DNA of 26,407 bases, taken from Candidatus Thorarchaeota archaeon (lineage in GTDB: Archaea > Asgardarchaeota > Thorarchaeia > Thorarchaeales > Thorarchaeaceae). This document shows positions 4,124-24,452 of the stretch, one piece after another; the stretch's first letter is position 1, and the number at the start of each line of letters is the position of its first letter. Location: NCBI GenBank assembly GCA_016840855.1, contig JAEORO010000161.1:1-26407 (forward strand). The letters are read 5' to 3'. A program made the position numbers and the translations under genes. The notes under the pieces are model-generated. The model was not told the origin of the DNA, did no database searches, and worked only from the letters and a program-made list of their open reading frames with translations.

Positions 4124-7065
4124 TTTGTAGACCTCCCCTCGCCTGCGATGGTCACGGTTGACTGTTTAGTCGAAGATACTTTATCCGGATTTGCAGGTTC
4201 TAGAAGCTCACGAAGATATTGTCCAGTATAGGACTCATTACATGCAACAATATCTTCAGGGGTTCCTTCTGCAACGAGATAGCCTCCATCATCCCCTCCT
4301 TCTGGCCCGAGGTCAATGACCCAGTCCGCAGTCTTGACAACATCAAGCTGGTGCTCGATGACCAAGATGGTATTCCCTAGATCTACAAGTCGGTGAAGGA
4401 CTTCTAGTAGTTTCTTGATGTCTGCAAAGTGTAAACCTGTGGTTGGCTCATCAAGCAGAATTAGAGTCTGTCCTGTCGCTGGTCTTGATAGGAATTTGCT
4501 TAGCTTGATACGCTGAGCTTCACCGCCAGATAGCGTGGTTGCAGGTTGTCCTAATTTGACATAACCCATGCCCACCTCACATAGAGTTTCGAGCCTGCGA
4601 TGCACTGAGGGGATGCCTTCAAAGAATACTACTGCCTCATCAATCCGCATGTCGAGGATGTCAGCGATGTTCTTCCCCTTGAATCTCACCTGAAGGGTTT
4701 CTCTGTTGTAGCGTCGTCCCTTACACTCGCTGCAGGTGACTTGTACTGGCGGGAGGAACTGCATCTCAATGACCTCCACTCCAGCTCCCTTACAGGTTTC
4801 ACAACGCCCGCCCTTCACATTGAAACTGAATCGACCAGGTTTGTATCCGCGTATCAGTGACTCAGGAAGACTCGAGAAAAGGTCTCGTAACGGAGACCAT
4901 AGACCTACGTAGGTTGCCGGATTAGAACGAGGAGTCCTTCCGATAGGACTCTGATCAATGACGATAACCTTGTCCAGTTGCTCGACGCCCACAATCTCGT
5001 CAAACTTGCCGGGCTTAGCTTCAGCATTATGGAATCGTCGTGCAAGCTCTCGCTGAAGTGTTTCAACAATCAATGAAGACTTTCCGGAGCCTGAAACCCC
5101 AGTTGTCGAAACAAACATCCCAAGGGGTATTCGTATGTTTAGGTTCTTCAAGTTGTTATGCTTGCACCCTCTGAGTTCAATGAATCGTCCGTTTGGTTGT
5201 CTTCGATGCTCAGGAACTGGTATCTTCTCATCACCCCTGAGATACCGAGCTGTGGTGGACTTCTTTGATTTCAAGACATCATCAAGAGTTCCACAAACAA
5301 CAACCTCACCACCCTCTGAACCAGCCCCTGGTCCCAAGTCAACGATATAGTCTGCTGTGCGAATAGTTTCCTCATCATGCTCAACAACAAGGACATTGTT
5401 ACCAAGATCTCTGAGTCGGAGTAAAGACTTCAGAAGTCGAATATTATCGCGACTGTGAAGACCAATTGATGGTTCGTCGCAAACATAAGTCACTCCAACA
5501 AGATTCGATCCAATCTGACTGGCCAGTCGTATTCGTTGAGCTTCACCTCCAGCAAGACTGGGAGCAGACCTATCAAGAGTGAGATACTCAAGTCCTACAT
5601 CCTCTAAGAACCCAATCCGTCCTAGAATCTCACGAAGAATAGGTTCTGCTACTGGTTTTAATCGAGGTTCTACTTTAGCCTTCTCAAAGAACTCTCGAAG
5701 AGCTTTGATTGAGAAGCTGTTTACCTCTGTAATGGATTTTTCATTGAAAGTGACAGCTTGTGATTCAGGTCTCAATCGACTGCCTTGACAAACGGGGCAT
5801 GTTTGTGCAGACATATACTTCTCCAAAATGCCTCGACCATATTCAGACTTCGTTGTCTTGTAGATTCGTTTAGCACGCTCAACCCATCCCTCAAAGGGTC
5901 TCTTGAATGTCCCCTTGTACTGCACTTCAAACTCCGGATTGTCACCCTCCCAAGTGGCTTCGAACTTCCTTGAGCCTGAACCATATAGAAGAAGGTCTTG
6001 CTGCTTCTGGGTCATGTCTTTCCAAGGTGTGTCCATGGTGAATCCATATTTCTCAACAATATTCTTTGTAAAGACACGTTTGAGCTTCCATTGGTCCGTC
6101 TGAAAGAGACCAGTGTTTAGCGACCGATTCGGGTCTGAGATGAACAGGTCAGGGTCGAACTCACGAATGACACCGATTCCTGTACAATTTGGACAAGCAC
6201 CCTGAGGAGTGTTCCAGCTGAAGATACGCGGCTCCATCTCAGGAAGACTGATTCCACAGTCTACACAAGCGAATTGCTCTGAAAGGGTAAAATCTCCATC
6301 AGGCGTGACAATTGTGACAACCCTCTCAGCCATATTTAGAGCGGTTTCCACGGCCTCAGAGATGCGACCACGCTCGGACTCCTTTACTGCAAGCCTATCG
6401 ATGACCACCTCAATTGTGTGCTCGAAATACCTATCGAGAGACATTCCCTCTTCCAGCTCAGTCAGCTTTCCATCAACACGGGCCCGGATAAAGCCTTTCT
6501 TGAGGAGGTCTCGGAACTCCTTCCTGTACTCTCCTTTCCTCCCTCGAACGATGGGAGCAAGAATCATGATACGCGAACCTTCTTTGAGGTTCAACACTCG
6601 ATCGACCATCTGTTGAGAGGTCTGAGGTTCTATCTTTTTCTTACACTGTGGACAATGAGGTTCTCCCACTCGGGCATATAAGAGTCTGAGATAATCATAG
6701 ATTTCTGTGATTGTTCCAACACTCGATCTCGGATTCCTACTCACACTCTTCTGGTCAATAGATATTGATGGCGAGAGACCTGTCATAAGGTCAACTTTAG
6801 GTTTCTCAAGCATCCCCAGAAATTGACGTGCGTAAGGAGAGAGGGATTCCACAAATCTTCGTTGACCTTCGCTATATATTGTGTCGAAGACGAGTGAGCT
6901 CTTCCCAGAACCAGAAAGTCCTGTGACAACTGTAAACGTATTCTTAGGGATAGTGACATCGATATGCTTCAGATTATGTTCAGCCGCACCCATGACAATG
7001 ATAGATCTGGGGCCATCTGCCTCAGTATCAGTGGCTCCATTGTTCTTATCTGCTGCCGAATTCAC
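4120..7065 (-). CDS. uvrA: Excinuclease ABC subunit A
   Basis: GLSGSGKSS, EGQRRFVESLSPYARQFLG, UvrB-binding domain (ILAPIVRGRKGEY...GFIRARVDG), second ABC domain with RTPRSNPATY and LSGGEAQR; GTG start overlaps the uvrB stop (TAGTG). Confidence 0.97.
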   Translation of the reverse strand: MNSAADKNNGATDTEADGPRSIIVMGAAEHNLKHIDVTIPKNTFTVVTGLSGSGKSSLVFDTIYSEGQRRFVESLSPYARQFLGMLEKPKVDLMTGLSPSISIDQKSVSRNPRSSVGTITEIYDYLRLLYARVGEPHCPQCKKKIEPQTSQQMVDRVLNLKEGSRIMILAPIVRGRKGEYRKEFRDLLKKGFIRARVDGKLTELEEGMSLDRYFEHTIEVVIDRLAVKESERGRISEAVETALNMAERVVTIVTPDGDFTLSEQFACVDCGISLPEMEPRIFSWNTPQGACPNCTGIGVIREFDPDLFISDPNRSLNTGLFQTDQWKLKRVFTKNIVEKYGFTMDTPWKDMTQKQQDLLLYGSGSRKFEATWEGDNPEFEVQYKGTFKRPFEGWVERAKRIYKTTKSEYGRGILEKYMSAQTCPVCQGSRLRPESQAVTFNEKSITEVNSFSIKALREFFEKAKVEPRLKPVAEPILREILGRIGFLEDVGLEYLTLDRSAPSLAGGEAQRIRLASQIGSNLVGVTYVCDEPSIGLHSRDNIRLLKSLLRLRDLGNNVLVVEHDEETIRTADYIVDLGPGAGSEGGEVVVCGTLDDVLKSKKSTTARYLRGDEKIPVPEHRRQPNGRFIELRGCKHNNLKNLNIRIPLGMFVSTTGVSGSGKSSLIVETLQRELARRFHNAEAKPGKFDEIVGVEQLDKVIVIDQSPIGRTPRSNPATYVGLWSPLRDLFSSLPESLIRGYKPGRFSFNVKGGRCETCKGAGVEVIEMQFLPPVQVTCSECKGRRYNRETLQVRFKGKNIADILDMRIDEAVVFFEGIPSVHRRLETLCEVGMGYVKLGQPATTLSGGEAQRIKLSKFLSRPATGQTLILLDEPTTGLHFADIKKLLEVLHRLVDLGNTILVIEHQLDVVKTADWVIDLGPEGGDDGGYLVAEGTPEDIVACNESYTGQYLRELLEPANPDKVSSTKQSTVTIAGEGRSTK

Positions 7066-9047
7066 TATTCCATTCCCTCAATTCTCTTCCTGAGACTAGC
7101 AATCTGATCACGAAGTCGAGCAGCTTTCTCAAATTCCAGATTCCTTGCAGCCTCCTTCATCTGCTCCTCAAGGTCGATGATGTAGTCAGCTAGCTCATCT
7201 ACTTCGAATGGATCAAAGTCCTCAAGACTTGTCTGGCGGGTCTTCTCCGGTGTTTTGATTCCCTGAGCAATGTCTTGAATTGACTTGATAATTGACTCAG
7301 GCTGAATGCCATGCTCTTCATTATACTTCAGCTGATATGATCGCCGACGGTTTGTTTCATCAATGGCGGTCTGCATGGCAGTGGAAACATGATCCCCATA
7401 TAGGATGACTCGACCGTTTGCATTACGAGCTGCACGACCCATAGTTTGAATGAGCGCCCAGTCAGTCCTGAGGAATCCTTCCTTATCAGCATCGAGGATG
7501 GCAACCAGACCCACTTCTGGCAAGTCAAGGCCCTCTCTTAGAAGATTGATTCCTACGAGTACATCAAACTTGCCTTGTCGCAGTTGACGTACTATCTCAA
7601 TTCGTTCCACAGTTCCAATATCTGAGTGAAGATATCGTGCCTTGACTCCTGCCTCAACGAGATACTCACTCAACATCTCAGATGTCTTTTTTGTTAGTGT
7701 AGTTACAAGAACTCGGTCACCCATCTCAACAGACTTATTGATCTCACCGAGTAAGTGGTCAACTTGCCCTATAACGGGTCTGACTGTTATTGCGGGATCA
7801 AGGAGTCCGGTAGGCCGAAGGAGCTGTTCTACAATCTGCTGACTTTTCTGGCCCTCATATGGACCGGGAGTCGCACTTGTGTAAACAACGTGTTTCATGT
7901 ACTTTTCAAACTCATGAAACCTCAGAGGTCTATTATCAATGGCAGAAGGAAGTCTAAAACCATAATCGACTAAGTTCTGTTTTCGAGAAAGGTCCCCATT
8001 ATACATACCTCGTATCTGAGGTATTGTCATATGACTCTCATCGATAATCATCAGAAAGTCCTCAGGAAAATAATCGAGAAGGGTGTATGGCTTCTCACCA
8101 ATGGCTCGACCATCGATGAATCGAGAGTAGTTCTCAATACCTGAACACATCCCTGTTTCCCTGAGCATCTCAATATCGTACATTGTTCGTCTCTTGAGTC
8201 GATCAGCTTCTACAAGTTTGCCCTGCTTCCTGAACCATTCGACACGTTCACGCATCTCCTGTTCTATTGGTTCGAGAGCTTTGATGATGGTTTCATGTTG
8301 AGCTATGTGATGTTTAGCTGGGAACAACTCAATCCAGTTGGGTTCATACAGTCTTTTGGACGTCAATCCTTCCAAGACAGTGAGTCGCTCAACTCGGTCT
8401 CCATCTAATTCAATTCTGATACTGTTTTCTGAGCCTGCAGGATAGACATCAACGACATCACCACGAACTCGGAAGATGCCGGGCTTGATTTCCATATCAT
8501 TTCGTTCATACTGCATAGCCACCAGACGTTCCAATATCTCCCGCCTATCGATCTGATTGCCACGTTCAAGAAACATCCTGAAGTAATCATATTCGCTCGG
8601 ATTTCCCACACCATAAATACAGGAAACTGAGGCTACAACAATTGTATCTTTTCGAGCCCTCAAAGAGTGCGTCGCAGAATGACGAAGTCTTTCAATCTCT
8701 TGATTGATATCCGTTTCTTTCTCAATGTACATGTCCTTACTAGGAACATAAGCTTCTGGCTGGTAGTAGTCATAGTATGAAACGAAGTATTCAACACCCG
8801 CATCTGGAAAGAACTGCTTATACTCAGAGGTCAGCTGAGCAGCCAATGTCTTGTTATGAGAGATTACAAGCGTTGGTTTATTGTATGTTTCAATAACATT
8901 CGCCATTGTGAATGTCTTGCCAGAACCAGTGACCCCTAGTAGGGTCTGATGTAGCAGACCATTCTCGAGACCCTCCACTAGTTTCTCAATGGCTTGAGGT
9001 TGATCGCCAGTGGGTTTGAATGGAGCCTCTAGTTTGAAATCACTCAT
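7065..9047 (-). CDS. uvrB: Excinuclease ABC subunit B
   Basis: PTGDQPQAI, GVTGSGKT, beta-hairpin FVSYYDYYQPEAY, IDESH, INLLREGLDLPEV, GRAARN, C-terminal UVR domain (AARNLEFEKAARLRD). Confidence 0.98.
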   Translation of the reverse strand: MSDFKLEAPFKPTGDQPQAIEKLVEGLENGLLHQTLLGVTGSGKTFTMANVIETYNKPTLVISHNKTLAAQLTSEYKQFFPDAGVEYFVSYYDYYQPEAYVPSKDMYIEKETDINQEIERLRHSATHSLRARKDTIVVASVSCIYGVGNPSEYDYFRMFLERGNQIDRREILERLVAMQYERNDMEIKPGIFRVRGDVVDVYPAGSENSIRIELDGDRVERLTVLEGLTSKRLYEPNWIELFPAKHHIAQHETIIKALEPIEQEMRERVEWFRKQGKLVEADRLKRRTMYDIEMLRETGMCSGIENYSRFIDGRAIGEKPYTLLDYFPEDFLMIIDESHMTIPQIRGMYNGDLSRKQNLVDYGFRLPSAIDNRPLRFHEFEKYMKHVVYTSATPGPYEGQKSQQIVEQLLRPTGLLDPAITVRPVIGQVDHLLGEINKSVEMGDRVLVTTLTKKTSEMLSEYLVEAGVKARYLHSDIGTVERIEIVRQLRQGKFDVLVGINLLREGLDLPEVGLVAILDADKEGFLRTDWALIQTMGRAARNANGRVILYGDHVSTAMQTAIDETNRRRSYQLKYNEEHGIQPESIIKSIQDIAQGIKTPEKTRQTSLEDFDPFEVDELADYIIDLEEQMKEAARNLEFEKAARLRDQIASLRKRIEGME

Positions 9048-11718: not shown

Positions 11719-12591
11719 GTGGTTGAACCAGAAATGCGCGAAGTGACAATATCAACAGAGAAGGACCTATTTTTACCAGGGGACCTTGTTAGTGGACACG
11801 TCCTTGTTAGAACGGATAAAGGTTTCACATGCAATAGAATTGTTTTGAAGCTCCGTGGAAAACAGTACACTCACTATCAAGCAGGAAAGGCTCATGTTAG
11901 TGAAACTCATGAGATTCTAAGTAAAGACATCCCAATCTGTGACGGAGGACAATTTTACTCCGGGGATGAGAGATTTGAATTTGAATTCAGACTTCCTGAG
12001 AAAATTCCACCAGTCCACACTGGTCTTCATGGAATGATTGACTATACGGTTCAGGCAGTTGTCGAAATTGACCGAGCATTGGATCCAAAATCAAAGATTG
12101 AACTAATTGTGAAATCGCCACATCCAAACTATATTCCTGAGCCTATTCCCGAACCAATGCCAATCAGAAAAGAAACAGAATATCTACAAGCTGAAATTCC
12201 AACAAATATTCTTAGACCCAAAAAGGGATTTGTAGTTAGATTTCTTGTGCTAGAACGATCTCGTGTAAAGGGGATTAGATTAGACATCTTAAGAAAAGAA
12301 GATGTGATTTGTAGAAGCCGTAAGTTAGACTCTAAGATTGTGATAAGTGAAAAACATATACCAATAACAAACAACGATTTCGAACGGTGGATTGAGGAAA
12401 CGATACATCATGATTGGAGTACAGTGATTCCTTTTGAGAGTAAACTCATCAACACGTCGCTTGTTCTCAAAGTGGTATTAGAGGTTGGACTGTCAATTGA
12501 CCCTTTTATCGAGTTCCCATTGCGGCTTTCTGGAGAGAAACCTAAAGAAGACCCATCAGACGATTTTACTGATATTGACTTAGGCTGGTAG
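11719..12591 (+). CDS. Arrestin-fold protein (Arrestin_N/SpoOM-like plus a second beta-sandwich)
   Basis: FLPGDLVSGHVLV...IVLKLRGK...FEFEFRLPEKIPP...GMIDYTVQAVVE matches the alpha-arrestin N-domain pattern; Pro-rich linker; second beta-rich domain. Confidence 0.75.
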   Translation: MVEPEMREVTISTEKDLFLPGDLVSGHVLVRTDKGFTCNRIVLKLRGKQYTHYQAGKAHVSETHEILSKDIPICDGGQFYSGDERFEFEFRLPEKIPPVHTGLHGMIDYTVQAVVEIDRALDPKSKIELIVKSPHPNYIPEPIPEPMPIRKETEYLQAEIPTNILRPKKGFVVRFLVLERSRVKGIRLDILRKEDVICRSRKLDSKIVISEKHIPITNNDFERWIEETIHHDWSTVIPFESKLINTSLVLKVVLEVGLSIDPFIEFPLRLSGEKPKEDPSDDFTDIDLGW

Positions 12592-14773: not shown

Positions 14774-14878
14774 GGAGAAGAAGATACAGGGCTCTGCTAT
14801 AAAAGTGCGGTTTATTAGATGGATAGCAGCGGTCAAAGGGTCACTGATTGTGAGAGCAAATCGAGAAGGCGATCCCAA

Positions 14879-17650
14879 TTGGTTGTGACACCTATAAACT
14901 ATGATGCATTTCAGGGCAAGAGAAGAAAATTAGTTGCTCTCTTTTGTTTCATGCTCTCTTCAGCCATCATAGCTGGTATCATGGTGTTCGTTGATTCATA
15001 TTCAATTGAAACTTGGAATTCCTGCACTGATGTCGGCCCTGTTTCTTTTGTAGCCATAGGGACTGGGATTGACAACAGAATGAGTTCTGTTCAAGAGATT
15101 TCAGGAATTGAAAAAGCTGCTGCAATTCGTGGATCACCCATCTATCTTGCATCAAGAGCACTGGGGCTGTGGTGGCAAGCTAACACTTTTGCCTTGGGAT
15201 ATGATGAAGAATTCATCGAAGCATTCCCCACCATATTCATTCTCATAGAAGGGAGATTTCCAGCGAACGGATCTGAAATAGCTATTTCAACTCTGACCGC
15301 ACATCGGCTCTATGTTGATGTTGGAGACCAAGTCAATTATTCCTTTACTTCAAATAATCCCGAAAATCCATCCTATAGACCTACAATCGTTTCAGGACTC
15401 TTTGAACACGGGGAAACAGGTTACGCCAATTCATTTTACTATATTCGTGGACATACACTCGTACATTCCTCGTTAAGTAGCTCCCTGACTGCGAGCTTCA
15501 TCTATGCAAATGCTGATAGAAACAAAGTTGTAGCTTACAATCCTGCACAATCTCTTGCTTATCTAAATAGCATTGATGAAGAAATTAGGGAACTGGACCC
15601 ATTATATGGGCGGACAGGAACATCTCAATATGTCATCATTAATTTCCTTTCTGATGGGATTGAAGATTATATGGACTATCTGAGGGACCTTCGGACATCT
15701 CAGATTATCAGAAGTGGCGGTTTAATACTCCTTGAACTTGCAGTCATTTACTTAGCTATCAATCATGTCTGGAATGAAAGGGATTATGAAGTCAGCATAT
15801 TGGTTGCGAGAGGAGCTTCTCAGTTTCGAGTTAATGCTACAATCAGCATTGAAATCGTTCTAATGGCAATGATATCAATTTTGCCGGGATATGTAACAGG
15901 TCTCATAGTCAGTAGATTTGCGATTGCATCAAATGGATTCTTTGCAATAGATTTTCAGAAAATCTTTACAGAGCCACTTTTGATTTCTCTTGATGGACTA
16001 CTCTATTCACTCATTGCCGGAATGGTTCTACCTCTTGTGGTCTTAGCCATATATCAAATGAGAGGGTCCATTACAATTACAGTTGGAGATAGGACCGGTA
16101 GACTAGCGAGAATAACAAGAGCATTGAGTTTTATCAGAGGTGATGTGGCTCTTCTTACTTTGAGTGCAGCTTTTCTTATCGCGCTTAATTTAGAGGGCAC
16201 TGCTGTCGCACGTGATCCATTTCTATATACAATTCTAGGTATCCTGCCCTTCACTTTGTTTTTCGGTCTAACAAGTCTTGCACTCAAGGGACTAAAACGA
16301 GGTGCTAATCGTTTGTCTCGAGTCTTTGGTGTCATAGTTGGACAGATACCAGCTTCTATAGGCATTAGAAGGATAAACAAAGCAACAGCATCATCTGGAC
16401 CCCTCATTATCGTTCTTGTTTTGGCCATGAGTCTTGGTTGGAACTATGCGATAAATGATGCAACTCTTCCCTATACGAGAATGAACCAATCCAGATTTGC
16501 AATAGGAGGTGACCTAGCATTTCACCTCGATTCAGACAAATCACAACAATGGGGATCATTTATTGGAAATATCACTAGTGCCATTCCTTCGTCAACAGGG
16601 AGCCTCATAAGTAAATTATCTCTCTCACTCTCTACTGGTACCGAGGGTACGTTTGATTTTATTGCGATAGATCCAGACGAGTATTCACATGTGGGATATG
16701 ATTCTGTTGGAGATAGACTAGATGAATCAAGTCTTGGTGTCTTAATGGAACAGCTCGCAATAATGGAGTTTGGTGCTATTGTCACACAAGATATTGCAGA
16801 ACAATATGTTCTATCAACTGGGGGTCTCTTGAGAGCATTTTGGAGGAATCAAACTGAACTCGCAGCGCTTGAATTCAATATAATAGGAATTGTTGAAGCA
16901 CTTCCAGACACATTGACATTTGAAACTGGATACAACCCTTACCCGGGCATCGCTTGGACCTATAGTGTGGGAATAGGAAAAGTTTGGGTGAACAGGGAAG
17001 ATGTCGATCTAATCTTCTCAAACGGAGATGATGTTGAAAATGTATACTGCATGAGAGTTGAAGACCCATTCTATGCGACTCTCATAACTGAAGATTGCCT
17101 TGATAATGCATGGATGAATGTACTTGAAAATCATAAGTGGGTATCAGCTGCTCGCGAAGTTGAGAACTACATATCACAGGATATCTATATTCTCGATCGT
17201 TCTTCAGACACTCTGATGACGATTGTTAGCGTAGGAGCTATTTTTGGAGCATTCATAGTCTATGCAATAGAAGGGATAAAGTCTAGAAAACGTGAGATAG
17301 CGCTTTTGAGATCTTTAGGATCCGAGAGAACTCTCATAATAAGAATACAGGCATCAGAGATGCTTGTCCTTCTTTTGATCAGTATTTTATTACTTGGACT
17401 GTTCACACCTGTTCTATCAGTAAATTCTCTACTAGCTGCAGTCAGGATATATGGCGGTGTAACATACATCTATCCTTCTCCTGTAACTATTCTTGCTCCA
17501 TGGTTCTTGATGGCGGTAATTCTTTCATTCTTTGTACTCTGTGTTGTAATCTTCATTGGGCTTGTAGCAGGGTTAAGTTCACGAGTCAATCTTAGTGAGG
17601 CACTAAACAGCACTTGGACTGAGGCTGGCCCATATATGGAGGGAACGTAA
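14879..17650 (+). CDS. ABC transporter permease, FtsX/MacB-like (two repeats)
   Basis: EGRFP...EIAIS, ERDYEVSILVARGAS, RKREIALLRSLG; TM bundles separated by large extracellular domains; start uncertain (14819/14879/14885). Confidence 0.85.
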   Translation: MVVTPINYDAFQGKRRKLVALFCFMLSSAIIAGIMVFVDSYSIETWNSCTDVGPVSFVAIGTGIDNRMSSVQEISGIEKAAAIRGSPIYLASRALGLWWQANTFALGYDEEFIEAFPTIFILIEGRFPANGSEIAISTLTAHRLYVDVGDQVNYSFTSNNPENPSYRPTIVSGLFEHGETGYANSFYYIRGHTLVHSSLSSSLTASFIYANADRNKVVAYNPAQSLAYLNSIDEEIRELDPLYGRTGTSQYVIINFLSDGIEDYMDYLRDLRTSQIIRSGGLILLELAVIYLAINHVWNERDYEVSILVARGASQFRVNATISIEIVLMAMISILPGYVTGLIVSRFAIASNGFFAIDFQKIFTEPLLISLDGLLYSLIAGMVLPLVVLAIYQMRGSITITVGDRTGRLARITRALSFIRGDVALLTLSAAFLIALNLEGTAVARDPFLYTILGILPFTLFFGLTSLALKGLKRGANRLSRVFGVIVGQIPASIGIRRINKATASSGPLIIVLVLAMSLGWNYAINDATLPYTRMNQSRFAIGGDLAFHLDSDKSQQWGSFIGNITSAIPSSTGSLISKLSLSLSTGTEGTFDFIAIDPDEYSHVGYDSVGDRLDESSLGVLMEQLAIMEFGAIVTQDIAEQYVLSTGGLLRAFWRNQTELAALEFNIIGIVEALPDTLTFETGYNPYPGIAWTYSVGIGKVWVNREDVDLIFSNGDDVENVYCMRVEDPFYATLITEDCLDNAWMNVLENHKWVSAAREVENYISQDIYILDRSSDTLMTIVSVGAIFGAFIVYAIEGIKSRKREIALLRSLGSERTLIIRIQASEMLVLLLISILLLGLFTPVLSVNSLLAAVRIYGGVTYIYPSPVTILAPWFLMAVILSFFVLCVVIFIGLVAGLSSRVNLSEALNSTWTEAGPYMEGT

Positions 17651-20460
17651 TGTTTCTTGTATCCAGACTTACATCACAGAGTCCTCAGGTCTTAGCAACC
17701 TTGATTATGTTTTCACTTTCAGCAGGAGTCCTGGGTGGTGTATTATTCTATATAGACAGTACAAGCTCAAACGTGCTTGAAGAAATGACTCAAGGCATCC
17801 TAGTCGATATGGAGGTTCAGTGCACTTCTGAGTTCTATAATACGAATGCGACGACTATCGAGGAAATCGCAGATATTGTAGATAACCAGAATCTGGTGAC
17901 TAACACGGAAATAGTAACTATTATCGATAGTTGGGATGATGAGTTTCCTGAAAGCAGATTCAGGAAATATACATACCTTGGCGTGGAAAATTCAATCTTT
18001 AATGAATTCCCAAAAGTAATTCAGCTGGTAACTGAGTCTGTAAGTCTAAATGACACATCATGTTACTTGGAACAACAATGGGCGAGTTATCTTGGACTAG
18101 AGGTTGGAGATGTTTATGTTGCCGAGATGTTAGCTCCTGATGAAAATTACACAATGCAGCGATATAATGCATCTTACTTGGTTGTAGGCATATTCACTAC
18201 CACCGCTTATAGTAATCGACGTGATTCCAGCGGGAATCCAATTACGTCACTTCGTATGGTCACAACTCGCGAGGGGCTTGTTTCAGAATTTGCCAATGTT
18301 GGCTTGCGATCAACGAACAATCTTTTCTTCAGTGTTTGGACTAAGTTTGACTCCAGCTTCATCATTCACGGCAGTCCGAGTCTTGTCGAATCATCCTTAT
18401 CAGATGTGAAAAAGAGAATAGAACAACGCACACTTCCCTATGCGAGAGTGACTGATTTCGAGATTCTTGGTATCGTCTATGGATACAACACTTGGGCGTC
18501 TACAATGACTGTCATCTCTCTGGCATTTTCAATCCCAAGCATCGTTATGGGAGTGATGCTCTTGTTCTACAACTCGAAAATAATGGAAGACCGACGTAGA
18601 CGAGACACAGGCACTTTAATCACGAGAGGGTCGTCAGGATGGCAGTCATTTAGTTGGATCATATCCGCAGCCCTTGTGACAGGAGTATTTGGTAGTGTTG
18701 GAGCGATTATAACAGGTGCAGTCGCAGCTATACTCTCAGGTGGCGTAAGGCAGCTTCTAGTCTTTGGTGAGAAAGAACTTTCAACATTCAGTTTATTGCT
18801 TGAACCGACTTCGATTGCCATTGTCTTCGTCTTCTCCTTTATTGTTGGCTTTGCTATATCGTTGCCATCAGCAATCAACGCGCTCCTTATGACTCCAGAT
18901 GAGGCTCACTCTGTGGTCGAGAAACAATCGCTAGCAGGAAGGGAATTAATTAAGCCACCTGTAGCAGAAATCATAGGATTCATCGTATCTGGAATTCTAC
19001 TATTTCCGCTTCTATCAACGCTTGGGTCAGGTGGAGTTCCACCAACTGAAATGATGCTTTTTTCGATATTAGTTATTGCAATGTTTGGTATCTTTATTGT
19101 TTCAATATCAAAAATCCTATCGATACCAACTTCATTCGTCAAATCGAAAGCACTCAATCTATTCCATAGTGCATCCCGAGCTGTAGGAGCACGGATGATA
19201 TCTAGGAATGCCATCTTAGCGAAGAAAAGCGAAGCTATGGGAGTAATGTTCATTGGGCTAGTATTTACCGCTGCATTCTTTTCAACACTATCATCAGCAA
19301 CTGGTTCGAGTCACATGGAAGAACTGTTTATGTATAATGTTGGAGCGGATATTGTCATTAACGTAAATGAAAACCTCAGGAATGTCACCAATAACATCGT
19401 GGATGAAATCAAAACCATTGAAGGTGTTAACAGTGCAAGCGGCTTACTGAAGATTTATGGTCGTGCATTGTATCTTCAAGCAATTGAGTTACATGAACCA
19501 GTTTTAGTTAATATGTCACTGCCGATTTATGCTATTGATCCCGCGAGTTGGATTCATAGTGTTTTCCTATTACCATATTTCACAATCAGTGGAGATCCGT
19601 TTGAGTCAATCCCACTTATTGCGGCCGAAGAAAGTAATGTTGTAAGCTCGTTCATGCCAGTGCAACAATATGTAGCAGGACAACCGGTGTATAATAATTC
19701 TGTCAATGTAGTCATCCAAATTATTGATCAAGAATACCCACTTGATTGTTCTATTGTGGATGTGATGTCTACTGATTACGTGATAAGAAGTGTGAGCTAC
19801 TTCCCAGGAGAACCAGATGTTCGTGATTTTCTTATCATGAATATTACCTACGTCCAGGCAACTCTCAATACGACTCGTGTAAACAAGATTTTTGTTGACC
19901 TTGCAGCTGATGCAAATTATACCAAGGTGATGGAGGATATCAGAAGTATCGGTAATTTCACTTCTGAAGAATTACGCTCAGCGCAAGCAGACATAGATAA
20001 AGTTCTAGATTCAAGGACTGGTCAATCAGTGTATGGAGTCTATACTCTGAACCTGATATTTTCACTCATTTACCTGACTGCAGGGCTCATGATCATTTCG
20101 ATAGTGAAAAATCGACGACTTCAGAAACAATTCTCAATACTTAGGGCACTTGGAACACCCAATTCCTCAATCATGCGCTCAGTCCTTATGGATGTAGGAG
20201 TGAGTATGATTCTTGGTATTCTGATAGGATTGATTATCGGAATGTTCTTGTCTCTTCTATTGCTTCAAATTCCTCTTGCTTTTCTTGGTATTACAACAGA
20301 AATTGTTTGGTTTCAACTTCCAGTCATCTTAGTCTTGCCACTACCATTTCTTATAGGAATTATTCTCTTGAGCATTCTTTCAGCATTTACGACTACCTAT
20401 ATAGCTACAAAGAAGAGTCTTGAAAGCAACCTAGCAGATGATTTCAGACACAATGAATAG
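17650..20460 (+). CDS. ABC transporter permease, FtsX/MacB-like (two repeats)
   Basis: RRRDTGTLITRGSS, YNVGADI, KQFSILRALG; TAATG overlap with the upstream paralog. Confidence 0.85.
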   Translation: MFLVSRLTSQSPQVLATLIMFSLSAGVLGGVLFYIDSTSSNVLEEMTQGILVDMEVQCTSEFYNTNATTIEEIADIVDNQNLVTNTEIVTIIDSWDDEFPESRFRKYTYLGVENSIFNEFPKVIQLVTESVSLNDTSCYLEQQWASYLGLEVGDVYVAEMLAPDENYTMQRYNASYLVVGIFTTTAYSNRRDSSGNPITSLRMVTTREGLVSEFANVGLRSTNNLFFSVWTKFDSSFIIHGSPSLVESSLSDVKKRIEQRTLPYARVTDFEILGIVYGYNTWASTMTVISLAFSIPSIVMGVMLLFYNSKIMEDRRRRDTGTLITRGSSGWQSFSWIISAALVTGVFGSVGAIITGAVAAILSGGVRQLLVFGEKELSTFSLLLEPTSIAIVFVFSFIVGFAISLPSAINALLMTPDEAHSVVEKQSLAGRELIKPPVAEIIGFIVSGILLFPLLSTLGSGGVPPTEMMLFSILVIAMFGIFIVSISKILSIPTSFVKSKALNLFHSASRAVGARMISRNAILAKKSEAMGVMFIGLVFTAAFFSTLSSATGSSHMEELFMYNVGADIVINVNENLRNVTNNIVDEIKTIEGVNSASGLLKIYGRALYLQAIELHEPVLVNMSLPIYAIDPASWIHSVFLLPYFTISGDPFESIPLIAAEESNVVSSFMPVQQYVAGQPVYNNSVNVVIQIIDQEYPLDCSIVDVMSTDYVIRSVSYFPGEPDVRDFLIMNITYVQATLNTTRVNKIFVDLAADANYTKVMEDIRSIGNFTSEELRSAQADIDKVLDSRTGQSVYGVYTLNLIFSLIYLTAGLMIISIVKNRRLQKQFSILRALGTPNSSIMRSVLMDVGVSMILGILIGLIIGMFLSLLLLQIPLAFLGITTEIVWFQLPVILVLPLPFLIGIILLSILSAFTTTYIATKKSLESNLADDFRHNE

Positions 20461-20961
20461 CTATCGTTTCAGCCTTTTGAAGCAGAATGAGTAAAAATCC
20501 CATAGCTCTTGATCATTTGGTGTTTTTGAGATTAACAACTGGAGCAATTCAATCGCCTCGGGTTGAGCATTTCTCGATGAGTATAGTGCTGCCAAATGAC
20601 GTGCAGTGTGTTTGTCACTCGGATCTAGCTCCATCGACATTCGATAAGCTTGCTCTGCTTCAGACAATCTGCCTTCCTGTCTAAGAAGATCACCCCAGAT
20701 TGTCCAAGTCCAAGCGTTTGAGGTATCGATATCAAGAGACTTCTCGATAGCATCTGCCGCATCGCTTGCACGATCAGACATCATGTAAACCAAGGCTAAT
20801 GAATTCCACATTGTCGTATTTTGGGGCTCAAGCATCATCGATCTCAAGCACGCATACTCAACACCAGGCGATGGTTTGACCTCTTTAGAGGTTTCTGCCC
20901 TCAGTAGTGCTTCTTGGAAATGTCCTAGTATATTCTCATCTTCTATATCAGACTCCGACAA
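20461..20961 (-). CDS. Tetratricopeptide repeat protein
   Basis: Repeats EPQNTTMWNSLALVY, DTSNAWTWTIWGDLL...AEQAYRMSMELDP, TPNDQELW; GGAAGTG RBS-like site before TTG. Confidence 0.85.
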   Translation of the reverse strand: MSESDIEDENILGHFQEALLRAETSKEVKPSPGVEYACLRSMMLEPQNTTMWNSLALVYMMSDRASDAADAIEKSLDIDTSNAWTWTIWGDLLRQEGRLSEAEQAYRMSMELDPSDKHTARHLAALYSSRNAQPEAIELLQLLISKTPNDQELWDFYSFCFKRLKR

Positions 20962-20996: not shown

Positions 20997-21116
20997 TCAC
21001 GGACCATCATAGTAGATTCTAGCCAGCTCTACCAGCAGTGTTAGCTCACGTTTCTCTTTCTCCTTAAGCTCTTCAGGCGTGTGCTTGGTTACTGGCTGTT
21101 TTGCCTCTGCTGCCAT
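20997..21116 (-). CDS. Micropeptide 1, 39 aa (MAAEAKQPVTKHTPEELKEKEKRELTLLVELARIYYDGP)
   Basis: Protein-like charged helical composition; fills an otherwise empty gap; 8-bp hairpin 21130-21152 and AT-rich promoter upstream; alternative start at ATG 21128. Confidence 0.6.
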   Translation of the reverse strand: MAAEAKQPVTKHTPEELKEKEKRELTLLVELARIYYDGP

Positions 21117-21209
21117 TTTGTCTTGCATCCTACAGTCTAAATTTGACTGCAGTTTTGTGAATGATACAATAATATTCAAAATATACGTTTAATACATCTA
21201 GACAACAAG

Positions 21210-21250
21210 AAGCCAGTAAATGATTGAAGAAACCATCAATTAACTGGCTT
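21210..21250. terminator. Hairpin, possible terminator downstream of the aminotransferase gene
   Basis: AAGCCAGT/ACTGGCTT 8-bp stem plus inner ATTGA/TCAAT; pyrimidine-rich flank on the minus strand. Confidence 0.4.
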
Positions 21251-21356
21251 TCGATTATTAAGTGTTATAAAACCCCATTTTTTATTTTAAATTGTTTTAT
21301 AATCGAATTTTGTATATGGCTGTGGTCAAAAGTGCAATTATAACATGAAAAAATTG

Positions 21357-22484
21357 CTAGTATGTTTCAAGGAGTTCGCTAATTCTCTGCAATGCAGGTT
21401 CGAGGTACTCTTTATCGCTGCCAAAGCCAATTCGTATAAAGCCGGGCATGTTAAAGTGCTCACCAGGTGAAATAAGCACTTTCTTTTCATCTCGGACTCG
21501 CAAGACAAAATCCAACGAATTGATACCATCTTTCAACTTGATGAAACAGATTGCAGCTGCTTCAGGAGGCACCACTGTCATCAGATTTGAGTGAGAAGCA
21601 ATCCATTTCTCCATGATAGCCCAGTTCCCTCGAATCACTTTTCTTGTCCGTTTCTCAATAGCAGCTTGAATATCGGGCTGCAAAGCAAAGGTTGCCAACC
21701 AGTCACTCATTTTTGCGGGACATATGGTTGTGTAGTCAGAATAAGTCCAGAGTTCCAAAGCAACCCTAGGTGTTGGGCAGACAATCCAACCTATTCTGAG
21801 ACCGGGGAGACCATATGCCTTGGACAAGCTTGAAGTAATGAGGGCCCTATCATAGAGTTTGTGCATTGAGGGAGCTTTACTATCTTGAAGCTCCGCGCCA
21901 CGATAGATCTCATCAGATACAATCCATACCTCGTGTTCATTGGCGATGTCAACGATTGCACGTAGGTCTTCATTGGAAAGGATTTTACCGGTGGGATTGT
22001 TGGGCGTGCATATTGCTATAGCAGCAGTTTTCTTGGAAACCACCGCTTTCAAGCCTTTAATATCTGGAACCCATTTACTTCCATCCATTTTGAGTTTGAA
22101 GGGTATCACCTTCCCACCGAGGTTCGTCCAAATTCCACCGATTTGCATGTAGTTGGGCATCATGAAAACAAGCTCATTTCGCTCGGGATTTTCTCTACGT
22201 AACCACCAGGTTGTTACAAAGTTGGCTTCAGCGCCTCCCGATGTGGCAAGAATCTGATCGGATGTTGTTCCATGATAATGATATGAGATAGCTTCACGGA
22301 GAGGAATTGTGCCATTTGTTTGAGAATATCCTAGCTGGAGATCTTGAAAGCGATCCCTCAACTCTTGTGTATCAAGAAGATCTTTGATGCGTAGCGGCTC
22401 GACTCCACTCTCACTCAGATTATACTCAACCCGATGCTCCCATTCAGATTGAAATCGTTCAAGCTCAAACTGCTGTAATTTCAC
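21357..22484 (-). CDS. PLP-dependent aminotransferase class I/II
   Basis: NLSESG, PNNPTG, SDEIY, SLSKAYGLPGLRIGW (PLP lysine), IRIGF; GTG 22484 has an AGGTG RBS (alternative start 22502). Confidence 0.92.
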   Translation of the reverse strand: MKLQQFELERFQSEWEHRVEYNLSESGVEPLRIKDLLDTQELRDRFQDLQLGYSQTNGTIPLREAISYHYHGTTSDQILATSGGAEANFVTTWWLRRENPERNELVFMMPNYMQIGGIWTNLGGKVIPFKLKMDGSKWVPDIKGLKAVVSKKTAAIAICTPNNPTGKILSNEDLRAIVDIANEHEVWIVSDEIYRGAELQDSKAPSMHKLYDRALITSSLSKAYGLPGLRIGWIVCPTPRVALELWTYSDYTTICPAKMSDWLATFALQPDIQAAIEKRTRKVIRGNWAIMEKWIASHSNLMTVVPPEAAAICFIKLKDGINSLDFVLRVRDEKKVLISPGEHFNMPGFIRIGFGSDKEYLEPALQRISELLETY

Positions 22485-22552
22485 AGATGTCAACACCTGC
22501 ACATGTCAAGAACGATGCACAATAAGAATTCAGCTCTTTGTCACGCAGCAAG

Positions 22553-23602
22553 TTAGTTACTAAGATAATTCTCAAGATCATCAGTTCTCATCTGAGCTAT
22601 AATGATTTCTTTGTAGGGTTTGAATCCAAGTCGGTTATTGATTGATAACATTGGAGCATTTGTTGTTGCATTTCCTGTGGACATAGAAGTAACGTTTGGA
22701 AAACGCCTTTTTATCTCAAGGAGCATGATGGCTTTCAACCACTTTCCTTTTCCAGAACCACGATATTTCTCAGGGACACCCGTTAAATCTTGGAAGATAA
22801 GTGGAGCTTTGGATGGAAGATATATGACCTCTGTGAGTCCTGAAATATCACCATTTGGTTCTCGAGTTATGGCAGTAATCCAAGTACCCCCTCCAGATTT
22901 CCGGGATTCCTCAAGTTGTCGTCTCCGTTCAGGTGTAAAAGTATAGTCTCCAATTTCGAGGTCCTCCCGTGGTGCTTGGTTCCCAACTTCATTGTAGACT
23001 CTGCAGTATTCTTCAATCATTTCTTCAGGAACATCTTGGAAGAACTCAATTTTAGAATCGGGAGACCTGACTGGTCCTTCCTTAGTCCACTCATCAACCA
23101 TGTTCCAATCAAGTTTCTTCAAATCCAAACGGTTCTCAATTGCTGAAAGCGCTTCTTTAGCCTTGAGCTTCCTCATGAATCGCTTCCCATGATCTTCAGT
23201 TACTTGACAAAGAAGAAGGGATTTACCATGTTTCTTGGCAAAATTAAGCACGACCTCGAGTAGTTGCTTACCAATCCCATTTCCACGGTAAGGTGTAAGT
23301 AGCTCTAGATTAACAACTTGACAAAAATGCTTGTTTTCCTCATACGCAGCGGATGACTCCTTTAGTGTGGCTATCCGAACCATACCAATAGGCGCTCCGG
23401 GATTTTCGCGCTGGTGAACAAAATGGGTTTCCAGATAGCTCTCCTCAAGCATGCATCTGATGTTTTCTTCAACAACTTCATCAGCAGTGACAGGATCTCC
23501 TGGAAATGCTTCAGGGTATCGCTTATACCTATAATCATGATACATTCTCCATTGTTCCTTCGTCGCTTTTGAAGAGTCGAAAGCTCGTAGCTCAATCTCC
23601 AT
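22553..23602 (-). CDS. Tandem GNAT family N-acetyltransferase
   Basis: Two acetyl-CoA motifs (YRGNGIGKQLL; TGVPEKYRGSGKGKWLK) and TGNATTNAPMLSINNRLGF; GAGGAG RBS. Confidence 0.9.
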   Translation of the reverse strand: MEIELRAFDSSKATKEQWRMYHDYRYKRYPEAFPGDPVTADEVVEENIRCMLEESYLETHFVHQRENPGAPIGMVRIATLKESSAAYEENKHFCQVVNLELLTPYRGNGIGKQLLEVVLNFAKKHGKSLLLCQVTEDHGKRFMRKLKAKEALSAIENRLDLKKLDWNMVDEWTKEGPVRSPDSKIEFFQDVPEEMIEEYCRVYNEVGNQAPREDLEIGDYTFTPERRRQLEESRKSGGGTWITAITREPNGDISGLTEVIYLPSKAPLIFQDLTGVPEKYRGSGKGKWLKAIMLLEIKRRFPNVTSMSTGNATTNAPMLSINNRLGFKPYKEIIIAQMRTDDLENYLSN

Positions 23603-23661
23603 ATTGCATCGCTCCTCGTAGATGCATTGCTAGGCATGACTACTAGGTTAAGATTATCGAT

Positions 23662-24024
23662 TTAAGTAGCCTTCACTTCAAAATCAACATCAAGAATTGG
23701 AATCACGTATCGTTGGATATATCCAGTTTCAGAGTCGAAGGTAACATTCTTGAGAGTGCTCTGGAATGCTGGAGCAATGAGCTCATTGTCAAAAGACCTC
23801 GCAAAGATGATGAGGTGTGCACCTTTCCCTGTTATAAGAAGCATAGCAGTTTCAATGGTAGTTGAATAAGTTAGTCTATCGATTCCTTCCATAACCTTGT
23901 CTGCGATACCGATTGCTGCCTCATACACTGCATCTTTTTCCGAATGACCCCTAGCATCATAAATCATGTATGCTGGAGTATGAGTGTTGATTTGTGCCTC
24001 CATATCTCTCAGTGCATTGTCCAA
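23662..24024 (-). CDS. Hypothetical protein
   Basis: 120-aa ORF with globular composition that fills the gap; TTTTTAAA box about 30 nt upstream. Confidence 0.65.
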   Translation of the reverse strand: MDNALRDMEAQINTHTPAYMIYDARGHSEKDAVYEAAIGIADKVMEGIDRLTYSTTIETAMLLITGKGAHLIIFARSFDNELIAPAFQSTLKNVTFDSETGYIQRYVIPILDVDFEVKAT

Positions 24025-24057
24025 GGTATAAAACTACACTAAAAATCACAGGGTTTA

Positions 24058-24104
24058 AAAATTAGAATGAGAGTGCCCGCGACAGACACGGGCACAACCT
24101 CATT
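24058..24104 (-). terminator. GC-rich hairpin plus T tract ending the micropeptide unit
   Basis: Minus strand AATGAG-GTT-GTGCCCGTG-TCTGT-CGCGGGCAC-T-CTCATT followed by CTAATTTTT; the G-U pair favours the minus strand. Confidence 0.6.
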
Positions 24105-24137
24105 ATAGGTTGATCCGCATGGCTGATGCTACGACCT

Positions 24138-24233
24138 CTACCTGTTATAGAGGTAGGCATAAGCCAGTGCTTCGGTGCTTTGAAGCTTCTTTCCGTGGTT
24201 CAGCTTCTTCCTATCAGTTTTTGCGAGTGCCAT
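24138..24233 (-). CDS. Micropeptide 3, 31 aa (MALAKTDRKKLNHGKKLQSTEALAYAYLYNR)
   Basis: Hand-translated; near-perfect archaeal RBS GGAGGTGA 6 nt before the ATG; below the ORF-track cutoff. Confidence 0.7.
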   Translation of the reverse strand: MALAKTDRKKLNHGKKLQSTEALAYAYLYNR

Positions 24234-24255
24234 TACACTTCACCTCCATTTCTGC

Positions 24256-24363
24256 TCATTTTATACGAGCATAGTCGTAGTACAGGGAATCAAGCCTTCT
24301 GAGTCCCGGATTTCCGTTCCTTCGATTTGCGAAGGACTCGTTGTTTGCTGTTTCACCAGCCAT
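24256..24363 (-). CDS. Micropeptide 2, 35 aa (MAGETANNESFANRRNGNPGLRRLDSLYYDYARIK)
   Basis: Hand-translated; GGAGAGGAG RBS upstream; tandem with micropeptide 3; TTAAATA box and 5' hairpin upstream. Confidence 0.65.
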   Translation of the reverse strand: MAGETANNESFANRRNGNPGLRRLDSLYYDYARIK

Positions 24364-24427
24364 GGTTTTTGTATCTCCTCTCCAACTGCTGACGACCACA
24401 AAGTGTTGCTTACAGTTGTCATGTATT

Positions 24428-24452
24428 TTGTAATACTATTACAATATTTAAG
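24428..24452 (-). promoter_or_regulatory. Promoter (CTTAAATA) and palindromic operator TTGTAATA-N-TATTACAA of the micropeptide unit
   Basis: Perfect 8-1-8 inverted repeat at 24428-24444, immediately downstream of a TATA-like box on the minus strand. Confidence 0.55.

Follow-up and report, generated by a model that had tools for sequence, protein, structure and literature searches.

Micropeptide genes of a Thorarchaeota archaeon: a peptide paired with a TPR gene and a member of a lineage-wide microprotein family

Introduction

A contig of Candidatus Thorarchaeota archaeon (assembly GCA_016840855.1, contig JAEORO010000161.1), analysed here over its first 26,407 nucleotides and called the window, carries on its minus strand three open reading frames (ORFs) of 39, 31 and 35 codons, which we name p39, p31 and p35. 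Do these short frames encode proteins, do they belong to one family, and with which genes do they work? A sequence-only reading of the window had taken them for hidden genes of a single micropeptide family with tyrosine-rich tails and the common motif L-x-x-L-x-x-[LI]-Y-Y-D. It had offered three models for them: precursors of ribosomally synthesised and post-translationally modified peptides (RiPPs), helical short-motif regulators or signals, and tyrosine-sensing leader peptides. Among known organisms the Asgard archaea are closest to eukaryotes; genes shorter than 50 codons are mostly skipped in the annotation of their genomes.

The solid new results of our analysis are that p39 forms a gene pair with the downstream gene of a tetratricopeptide repeat (TPR) protein and that p31 has its place in a lineage-wide family of microproteins. 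In the accessible parts of the literature on Thorarchaeota, Asgard and archaeal small proteins no description of the p31, p35 or p39 families was found; supplements of small-ORF catalogues (e.g. PMC11364881) may list them without names. The accessible text of PMC13321764 mentions only machine-predicted Asgard antimicrobial peptides, none of them from Thorarchaeota.

Results

The three small ORFs are protein-coding genes

The genome assembly comprises 3.36 Mb in 259 contigs and is 92% complete; the window is contig C107 in our numbering. For the ortholog counts, a syntenic set of 21 loci was fetched from those genus genomes that match the hypothetical gene downstream of p31. Intact p35 orthologs were present at 15 of the 21 loci, p31 orthologs at 16 and p39 orthologs at 12. 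Four of the remaining p39 loci are cut by contig ends, two genomes have p39 elsewhere and three loci are without p39. The ratio of nonsynonymous to synonymous change (dN/dS, pooled Nei-Gojobori estimates) was 0.19 for p31 in its own frame and 1.11 and 0.97 in the shifted frames. The corresponding values were 0.28 versus 0.75 and 1.31 for p39, and 0.56 versus 0.74 and 1.64 for p35. In all three ORFs the diversity was highest at the third codon position, lower at the first and lowest at the second, and the length differences among orthologs were whole codons, i.e. in-frame indels. Thus, p35, p31 and p39 are genuine protein-coding genes kept by selection. Orthologs of all three exist in related genomes and all three carry codon-level purifying selection, so that the description as hidden micropeptide genes was right for each of them.

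Each ORF starts with Met-Ala at the position given before, but the tails of the two shorter peptides had been interchanged: the 31-residue peptide ends in EALAYAYLYNR and the 35-residue peptide in LRRLDSLYYDYARIK. The tyrosines are indeed confined to the tails, at positions 35 and 36 of 39 in p39, 25, 27 and 29 of 31 in p31, and 28, 29 and 31 of 35 in p35. In an archaeal host, TATA boxes and either Shine-Dalgarno (SD)-led or leaderless mRNAs are the expected signals. Two strong ribosome-binding sites had been proposed, and strong SD-like sites were found in front of p35 (GGAGAGGAG) and p31 (GGAGGTGA), while the p39 site is weaker (AGGATG).

Four sets of metatranscriptome contigs were compared with the locus at 85% likeness. 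A 244-nt contig of the marine-sediment run X5 matched 24119-24170 and 24270-24320, with 90-95% identity to the 3' end of p31 and the 3' part of p35 and with 82 unlike letters between them; the only other match was one piece of 35 nt in set X2. The X5 contig is probably the p35-p31 locus of a relative; that it comes from an RNA library does not prove that the locus is transcribed. On the plus strand, two antisense ORFs of 54 and 58 residues overlap p31 and p35 (24110-24302). They are probably shadows, with the codon-level signal favouring the minus-strand frames.

The three genes are not one family

Among the three ORFs, only p35 and p39 carry the pattern L..L..[LI]YYD. These two were also the only carriers among the 109,357 six-frame ORFs of the genome, against a mean of 0.35 over 20 shuffles, a post hoc count because the pattern was derived from p35 and p39 themselves. 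When the profiles were aligned with each other by hhalign, the probability was 3.6% for p35 and p39, over six columns around the YYD, 2.0% for p31 and p35, and 0.1% for p31 and p39; none of these values is significant. The idea of one family sharing the motif was given up on these probabilities and on the placement of p31 in a different, large family. Nor is the YYD retained, since p39 homologs of other genera keep E...Y-x-G-P-stop in its place.

The three genes would rather make up two independent modules, a p35-p31 unit and a p39-TPR pair. We hold this explanation with about even confidence, a grade that covers it as a whole: the two modules, a joint action of p35 and p31, and p39 as the partner of the TPR protein.

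p39 is inherited with a TPR gene

The gene downstream of p39 encodes a protein that matches TPR_1, TPR_2 and other TPR families of Pfam. In the PDB profile search it appeared as a consensus-type TPR, with consensus TPR proteins, OGT and PEX5 among the matches. The usual job of the TPR fold is to hold a short peptide. Orthologs of the TPR protein were found in 40 of 86 family genomes at E<=1e-15, other genera included, and their start is conserved as TTG or ATG. A narrow p39 profile (A3) detected no homolog outside the genus. This was a limit of sensitivity, because the regions upstream of the TPR orthologs did yield homologs: a small ORF immediately precedes the TPR gene at 11 of the 12 non-genus loci that were fetched, and in G073 this ORF is interrupted by an in-frame TAG. 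The tails of these ORFs read ...E-W-A-K-T-G-Y-K-G-P, ...Y-E-W-L-K-V-R-Y-D-G-P or similar.

The resulting alignment comprises 21 sequences; its invariant residues are M1, Y36 and G38, and conservation is at least 90% at E30 and P39. The consensus of the tail is E-x-x-x-x-x-Y-x-G-P-stop, and the first Tyr and the Asp of the YYD are not kept. The homologs are 38-47 residues long. Their N-terminal half is variable, from acidic to Lys-rich between genera, and the last ~12 residues are conserved. The final Gly-Pro is encoded by GGT, GGC or GGA and by CCG, CCA, CCC or CCT, followed by TGA (13 homologs), TAA (4) or TAG (4). Since the codons are synonymous and all three stops occur, the tail is conserved at the protein level.

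A widened p39 profile had one match each in 33 of the 86 family genomes, and a comparison of coordinates placed all 33 directly 5' of a TPR ortholog on the same strand. The matches are distributed over three genera: 20 of 27 genomes of g1 and the own genome, 1 of 1 in g16 and 11 of 17 in g25. In g25, p39 and the TPR gene are found in one and the same set of 11 genomes, and in no genome was p39 observed without the TPR gene. The distance from the end of p39 to the conserved start of the TPR gene is 27-35 nt in the genus and 22-36 nt overall. In five genomes (G007, G018, G004, G013 and G006) the pair is located on another contig or kilobases away from the hypothetical and aminotransferase genes; therefore, p39-TPR is a module of its own. 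It also has a conserved leader of its own (TGCAG...CTGCAGGATGCAAG).

The complex of the TPR protein (alignment A6) with p39 (A3) was predicted at a score of 0.02 versus a mark of 0.32; this was run without controls and speaks neither for nor against binding.

The interrupted p39 homolog of G073 (L090 562-678; contig C1 1465758-1465874) has its TAG where the homolog of G084 (L096) has a Gln; the tail beyond the TAG is intact, as is the TPR gene. Either this homolog is a pseudogene, or, next to the cassettes described below, it gives a second example of TAG at a Gln position.

p31 belongs to a multicopy peptide family

With a hidden Markov model (HMM) of the p31 orthologs, 10 copies at five loci were recovered from the own genome after one iteration: two each on contigs C86, C10 and C256, three on C257 and the one in the window. 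p31 itself matches the family profile (A4) at E=1.6e-16, and p35 and p39 were absent from the matches of the family HMM in the own genome at E<=10. By its profile matches, p31 is one member of an undescribed multicopy family of basic peptides of ~30 residues that is confined to one archaeal family. It is, as judged from the missing HMM matches and from the hhalign values of 2.0% and 0.1%, the only one of the three ORFs that belongs there.

The consensus of the family is M-A-L-x-K, a basic stretch and then [ST]-T-[DEQ]-A-[LI]-x-x-[AS]-Y-x-[YF]-R(R). In the p31 orthologs, M1, A2, L3, K5, K10, E21-A24 and A26 are invariant, Tyr27 is replaced by Trp in 8 of 16, and the stop codon is TAG in all 15 examined. 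The family profile matched every one of the 28 genus genomes, with 3-12 matches each, and 74 of 87 class genomes from 16 of 17 genera. In a phylum-wide sample it matched 51 of 59 genomes of the own family versus none of 191 genomes from 27 other families. The copy number ranges from 0 to 12 per genome.

When 1.84 billion cluster representatives were searched exhaustively with HMMER, 34 matches were obtained at E<=1e-3, of which 32 are peptides of the p31 kind with 29-73 residues and two are unrelated repeat proteins. The ten clusters of the family that were checked are all unnamed or called 'hypothetical protein'. The three peptides, two fused relatives and one paralog had no match in Pfam or NCBIfam, with the sole exception of a chance-level transposase match (15 bits, cut-off 225). 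No Rfam family was found in the window at the gathering score, and the ESM Atlas had no usable match for the fused relative P0007.

The architecture of the family was read from 24 paralogous loci in 19 genomes. The first peptide of such a cassette has 32-35 residues and ends in ..Y-R-R. The second has 27-31 residues, ends in ..Y-R and starts ~10 nt later, with an SD built from the Arg codons of the first. A third peptide is often present, which is acidic, ~35-40 residues long and ends in E-V-L-x-x-E-A-T; hhalign found nothing significant between it and p39, p35 or p31. The four other cassettes of the own genome have a methyltransferase, PolX, desulfoferrodoxin and 3-hydroxyacyl-CoA dehydrogenase as neighbours. 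Three of the paralog loci (C10 16759-16853, C256 7900-7954 and C257 75799-75848) have a near-identical promoter region with the palindrome GTCACAnnnTGTGAC 5' of TATATATA. This region was found neither at the C86 cassette nor 5' of p35 or p39, and a shared family promoter for the window genes was rejected.

Of the 24 cassette loci (L038, L039, L048-L067; own C86 34507-34833, C10 16854-17178), 18 have the third peptide. In 15 of these 18, the second peptide ends at a TAG and its reading frame continues into the third; at another locus the in-frame stop is TAA, and at the remaining two it is TGA and the third peptide is read in a different frame. Among metagenomic proteins, P0007, P0013, P0018 and P0029 are unbroken fusions with Gln at the TAG codon; when L053 is translated with read-through, the product shares 87% identity with P0007. 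The in-frame TAG junction may be a site of read-through or the trace of a recent split or fusion, or a short spacer may have been inherited in common. Pyrrolysine at the TAG was rejected: there was no PylS match in the 92%-complete genome and no tRNA-CUA among 24 tRNAs, and TAG ends 566 of 1708 long ORFs.

A natural fused relative was modelled with AlphaFold2. The conserved p31-family segment was predicted in a helix of residues 19-41, with a pLDDT of 87 over residues 21-30, and within the predicted helix of the family an Ala-x-x-x-[Ala/Ser] spacing occurs.

A probable transcription unit of p35 and p31

p35 and p31 are arranged in tandem, 22 nt apart, with an SD each, one TATA box upstream and one hairpin downstream. 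The p35 profile matched one copy in 20 of 87 class genomes, all of the own genus, and a p31-family gene was the neighbour wherever this was checked. In G004 and on contig C52 of G013, p35 is located beside a p31-family gene away from the hypothetical gene. p31 resembles the second-type peptide of the cassettes in its N-terminus, its position and its TAG stop, p35 is in first position, and the third peptide is missing from the window. Because of these positions and because the pair also occurs beyond the hypothetical gene, p35-p31 is, by its arrangement, a diverged family cassette in which the first peptide was replaced or has diverged past recognition.

The upstream regions of 15 p35 genes have a TATA-like ACTTAtATA, the palindrome TTGTAATAnTATTACAA and a hairpin in common. 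The position of the palindrome would suit an archaeal repressor that blocks initiation, and we regard it as a putative operator. A word TATTGTA...ACAAAA had been described at both peptide loci. In the p35 orthologs it corresponds to the conserved palindrome, but in the p39 orthologs it has no fixed spacing, so that an operator common to both loci is not shown.

The 5' hairpin of p35 was analysed by covariation. In the alignment, 85.5% of the cells were paired, compared to 22-55% with slid partners. Seven cells were changed on both sides, which was reached by none of 500 shuffles, and the two arms alternate together between CAACTG/CAGTTG and CAACCG/CGGTTG. A 5' hairpin had been proposed for both loci. 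That of p35 covaries; that of p39 (TGCAG..CTGCA) is predicted by RNAalifold, with 7 pairs of which 2 show compensatory changes, and its pairs are mostly invariant.

Downstream of p31, the RNA is predicted to fold with a minimum free energy of -49 kcal/mol (z=-4.77). A segment of the 3' untranslated region (UTR), GCATCAGCCATGC, is near-invariant in 15 orthologs and complementary to the p31 codons for A-L-A-Y-A. The pairs of this stop-proximal stem are conserved yet almost invariant, which makes covariation uninformative here. Candidate roles of the stem are mRNA stability, translational control or an attenuator-like switch. The unit ends with a terminator-like GC hairpin, in which 10 of the 12 pairs show compensatory changes among 15 orthologs; a simple consensus terminator scan did not flag it.

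The genes between the two modules

The order on the minus strand is p35-p31-hypothetical-GNAT-aminotransferase-p39-TPR (Table 1). The layout proposed before, with small ORFs bracketing co-oriented genes for a hypothetical protein, a tandem GNAT and an aminotransferase dependent on pyridoxal phosphate (PLP) and with a TPR gene next, was borne out. For the hypothetical gene, matches exist in 21 of the 24 other genomes of the genus and in none of 16 outside it. A Met eight codons inside its longest ORF is kept in all 21 orthologs, and in most of them a TATA-like TTTTATACC, here at about 24025-24033, precedes this Met by ~27-31 nt. Such a distance from TATA to start is the geometry of a leaderless archaeal mRNA. 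Apparently, the hypothetical gene is leaderless and has its own promoter. The AlphaFold2 model of its product is a confident alpha/beta structure (pLDDT 78, pTM 0.71); no PDB fold match at E<=1e-3 (best TM 0.2-0.4) and no Pfam or NCBIfam family was found for the protein. A Roadblock/LC7 fold had been considered for it and was rejected on this result.

The GNAT gene is missing from 10 of the 21 syntenic loci. The nearest models of the PLP enzyme are PRK07324, the guanitoxin cyclodehydratase GntC and the capreomycidine synthase VioD, all below the cut-off; the 'aminotransferase' may be no simple transaminase.

The region would be divided into three transcription units, p35-p31, hypothetical-(GNAT)-PLP enzyme and p39-TPR, because separate conserved signals were found: the promoter, palindrome and hairpin of p35, the terminator-like hairpin after p31, the TATA of the hypothetical gene and the leader of p39. 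Since loci can do without the GNAT and a leaderless-type promoter belongs to the hypothetical gene itself, no link between the peptides and these enzymes is evident.

Table 1. Features of the p35-TPR region of the window, in the order of transcription
Feature	Position	Strand	Remarks
TATA-like box (ACTTAAATA), then palindrome TTGTAATAGTATTACAA	24428..24453	-	Conserved in 15 aligned upstream regions; putative promoter/operator
5'-UTR hairpin (AACTGT...GCAGTT)	24384..24417	-	Abuts the p35 SD GGAGAGGAG; covariation
p35, 35-aa micropeptide gene (MAGET...LDSLYYDYARIK)	24256..24363	-	First cistron of the micro-operon
p31, 31-aa basic micropeptide gene (MALAK...STEALAYAYLYNR)	24138..24233	-	Second cistron; multicopy-family member by profile match
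Long stem, p31 Tyr-codon region and stop against 3'-UTR segment GCATCAGCCATGC	24117..24170	-	Predicted by folding
Terminator-like GC hairpin (GTGCCCG...CGGGCAC) and T-rich tract	24055..24104	-	Ends the p35-p31 unit
Hypothetical gene, longest ORF	23662-24024	-	Likely true start at the conserved Met at 24003 (113 aa)
Tandem-GNAT gene	22553-23602	-	Pfam; context only
Class I/II PLP enzyme gene	21357-22502	-	Pfam; context only
5'-UTR hairpin TGCAGTC...GACTGTA, then invariant GGATGCAAG before the p39 start	21121..21151	-	Strictly conserved at 12/12 own-genus loci
p39, 39-aa micropeptide gene (MAAEAK...LLVELARIYYDGP)	20997..21116	-	First gene of the p39-TPR pair
TPR protein gene, 166 aa, three repeats	20461..20961	-	Pfam TPR families; 35 nt 3' of the p39 stop

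Discussion

Coding status, conservation, family membership, transcription-unit signals and gene-pair linkage are established for the locus; from them we infer all binding steps and the cellular role proposed below. In the explanation that we favour, p39 would be a dedicated partner or ligand of the TPR protein and would be bound through its free C-terminal tail, because only this free C-terminus is conserved and p39 is never inherited without that TPR gene. p35 and p31 would act together, via helix-helix pairing, as small protein-binding regulators, with p35 as a genus-restricted partner in the first position of a family-type tandem pair. That cassette members bind each other is suggested by the tandem genes and by the natural fusions of the second and third peptides. 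The hypothetical protein, the GNAT and the PLP enzyme would be a separate unit, neighbours rather than partners. Of the three models offered earlier, that of helical short-motif regulators would fit best.

TPR receptors that read free C-terminal peptides are well known: the TPR domains of Hop hold the EEVD tail of Hsp70 and Hsp90, and PEX5 holds the PTS1 tail. The p39-TPR pair is similar in that a canonical three-repeat TPR stands beside a candidate partner that is strongly conserved only at its extreme C-terminus and is inherited with it (33 of 33 adjacent). Unlike in Hop and PEX5, the candidate ligand is a dedicated product of 38-47 residues encoded directly upstream in the same operon, and its tail is Y-x-G-P and neither acidic nor SKL-like. 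Among archaeal regulatory microproteins, sP26 and sP36 of Methanosarcina mazei are comparable as peptides of a few tens of residues that, in our case likely, bind larger proteins. They differ in that there is no homology, that p31 is multicopy and that p39 is operon-locked to a TPR gene. All analogues named here and below are resemblances only.

Several observations weigh against this explanation. Of the 13 non-genus p39 homologs, 10 were picked up 5' of the TPR gene and went into the widened profile, which they therefore match by construction; outside the genus, only G073 and G083 were independent finds of this profile. Seven genomes have a TPR match without p39: G008, G015 and G024 in the genus, G068 and G069, and the weak matches G060 and G061. 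The three genus genomes are from the most divergent species and have an opposite-strand gene upstream, and the two weak matches lie in much longer frames. Besides the in-frame TAG of the G073 homolog, another p39 homolog ends in G-T and not in G-P. For the p35-p31 unit, the selection signal of p35 is the weakest of the three (dN/dS 0.56) and its synonymous divergence is low (pS 0.36), to which constraint on the RNA may contribute. The model of the fused relative has a pTM of only 0.32, and the stop-proximal stem of p31 with the terminator resembles an attenuator layout. Finally, the order p35-p31-hypothetical-aminotransferase is kept genus-wide, and some functional link of the peptides to the hypothetical and aminotransferase genes is possible.

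Second in rank, though unlikely, is that p39 is a cis-acting leader: the nascent tail would slow termination at Gly-Pro-stop and the stalled ribosome would set the translation of the TPR gene. TnaC and SpeFL are leader peptides of this termination-arrest type in bacteria. p39 resembles them as a short ORF with a variable N-terminus and a conserved C-terminal segment of ~12 residues that runs to a Pro-stop (20 of 21 homologs), followed after a short and fairly constant gap (22-36 nt) by the next gene. The restriction of conservation to the C-terminal part, the conserved 5' hairpin and the strict linkage of the gene pair are also in line with a leader. However, linkage and a conserved tail are equally expected of a trans-acting TPR ligand, and unlike in TnaC and SpeFL the identity of the stop codon is not fixed in p39 and the host is an archaeon. 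Against the leader also counts that we know of no arrest peptide described in archaea, although no search was aimed at them.

For p31 and p35, the main rival to a pair of regulators is that the p31 family and p35 are leaderless multi-peptide antimicrobials or toxins of an archaeocin-like kind, with the third, acidic peptide as immunity protein or antitoxin. The tandem cationic peptides of ~30 residues with an SD each recall the leaderless bacteriocin operons of the aureocin A70 and enterocin L50 type, as do the several paralogs. The copy number of 0 to 12, the scattered and unrelated insertion contexts, the Ala-x-x-x-[Ala/Ser] spacing in the predicted helix and the fusions, which suggest that peptides two and three interact, would fit such a system as well. 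On the other hand, the family has no sequence similarity to these bacteriocins, and the N-terminal halves of its peptides are highly polar and not amphiphilic. In the own genome the five cassettes have unrelated housekeeping genes as neighbours, and none of them is flanked by a transporter, a dedicated exporter or an immunity gene; the FtsX-type permease genes of the window lie past the TPR gene and on the opposite strand. The window cassette is without the third peptide. We regard this reading as quite improbable.

Also improbable, and a shade bolder, is a lineage-specific microprotein layer, in which p39 would present its free Y-x-G-P tail to a dedicated TPR protein and the multicopy paired helical peptides would be subject to TAG read-through. 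The p35 tail, hydrophobic-x-x-hydrophobic-x-x-hydrophobic-Y-Y-[DE], could then be a second, competing TPR ligand. In the three-gene cassettes, with peptides two and three in frame across a conserved TAG that is Gln in some relatives, low-level read-through could make split and fused forms.

That the peptides are RiPP precursors is very unlikely. In this reading a polar leader would precede a Tyr-rich core, which the neighbouring GNAT and PLP enzyme, or else a remote maturase, would modify. The conserved Tyr-rich C-termini, the multiple precursor-like genes per genome and the position of GNAT and PLP enzyme between the ORFs, the latter with the natural-product enzymes GntC and VioD among its nearest, sub-threshold models, make the idea tempting. 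But, in line with the earlier remark that the window holds no Tyr-crosslinking enzyme, no radical SAM, P450, YcaO or lanthipeptide-type domain, nor any other maturase domain, was present among the 20 large window ORFs scanned, while remote maturases were not searched. Likewise, no maturase domain was found beside the four other cassettes, whose neighbours are unrelated. Ten of the 21 syntenic loci have retained the peptides but no GNAT, p35-p31 closes with its own terminator-like hairpin, and p39 travels with the TPR gene and not with the enzymes.

The least probable proposal, p31 as a Tyr-sensing leader modelled on the bacterial trp, phe and his attenuators, in which stalling at Tyr codons would melt the stem, block the terminator and let transcription reach hypothetical-GNAT-aminotransferase, draws on three Tyr codons among the last seven that lie in the 5' arm of the stable stem (z=-4.77), on the near-invariant complementary 3'-UTR segment followed by the covarying terminator-like hairpin and on the aminotransferase gene downstream, but is disfavoured because the whole of p31 including the N-terminal MALAK, and not only its regulatory codons, is under purifying selection (dN/dS 0.19), Tyr27 is Trp in half of the orthologs, the homologous cassettes stand alone elsewhere without downstream biosynthetic genes, a p35/p31-like pair occurs without the hypothetical gene in G004, and the hypothetical gene keeps its own TATA-like box at a leaderless distance.

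Returning to the two modules, the locus shows that Asgard genes below 50 codons can be numerous, with one family of up to 12 copies per genome that is under selection and has regulatory signals of its own. The p39-TPR pair is a compact and directly testable hypothesis on how an archaeal TPR protein finds its partner; if the p39 tail is read by the TPR protein, this would be an archaeal counterpart of the eukaryotic recognition of C-terminal tails by TPR domains. The tempting yet unsupported RiPP reading of the region is taken away by the analysis. If a role as regulators, toxins or signals is borne out, the peptides would offer a view into the cell biology of a lineage with very few cultured members.

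Other features of the window

Two FtsX-type permease genes of ~940 residues each (14819-20460, plus strand) are convergent on the TPR gene on the opposite strand. At lower coordinates of the window, a protein with arrestin N and C domains, a eukaryote-type domain, is encoded at 11719-12591 on the plus strand, and two neighbouring UvrA paralogs and UvrB are found at 1265-9047 on the minus strand. In the aragorn scan of the own genome, run without an intron search, a tRNA-Sec with the anticodon TCA was among the 24 tRNAs, and given this tRNA the organism probably uses selenocysteine.

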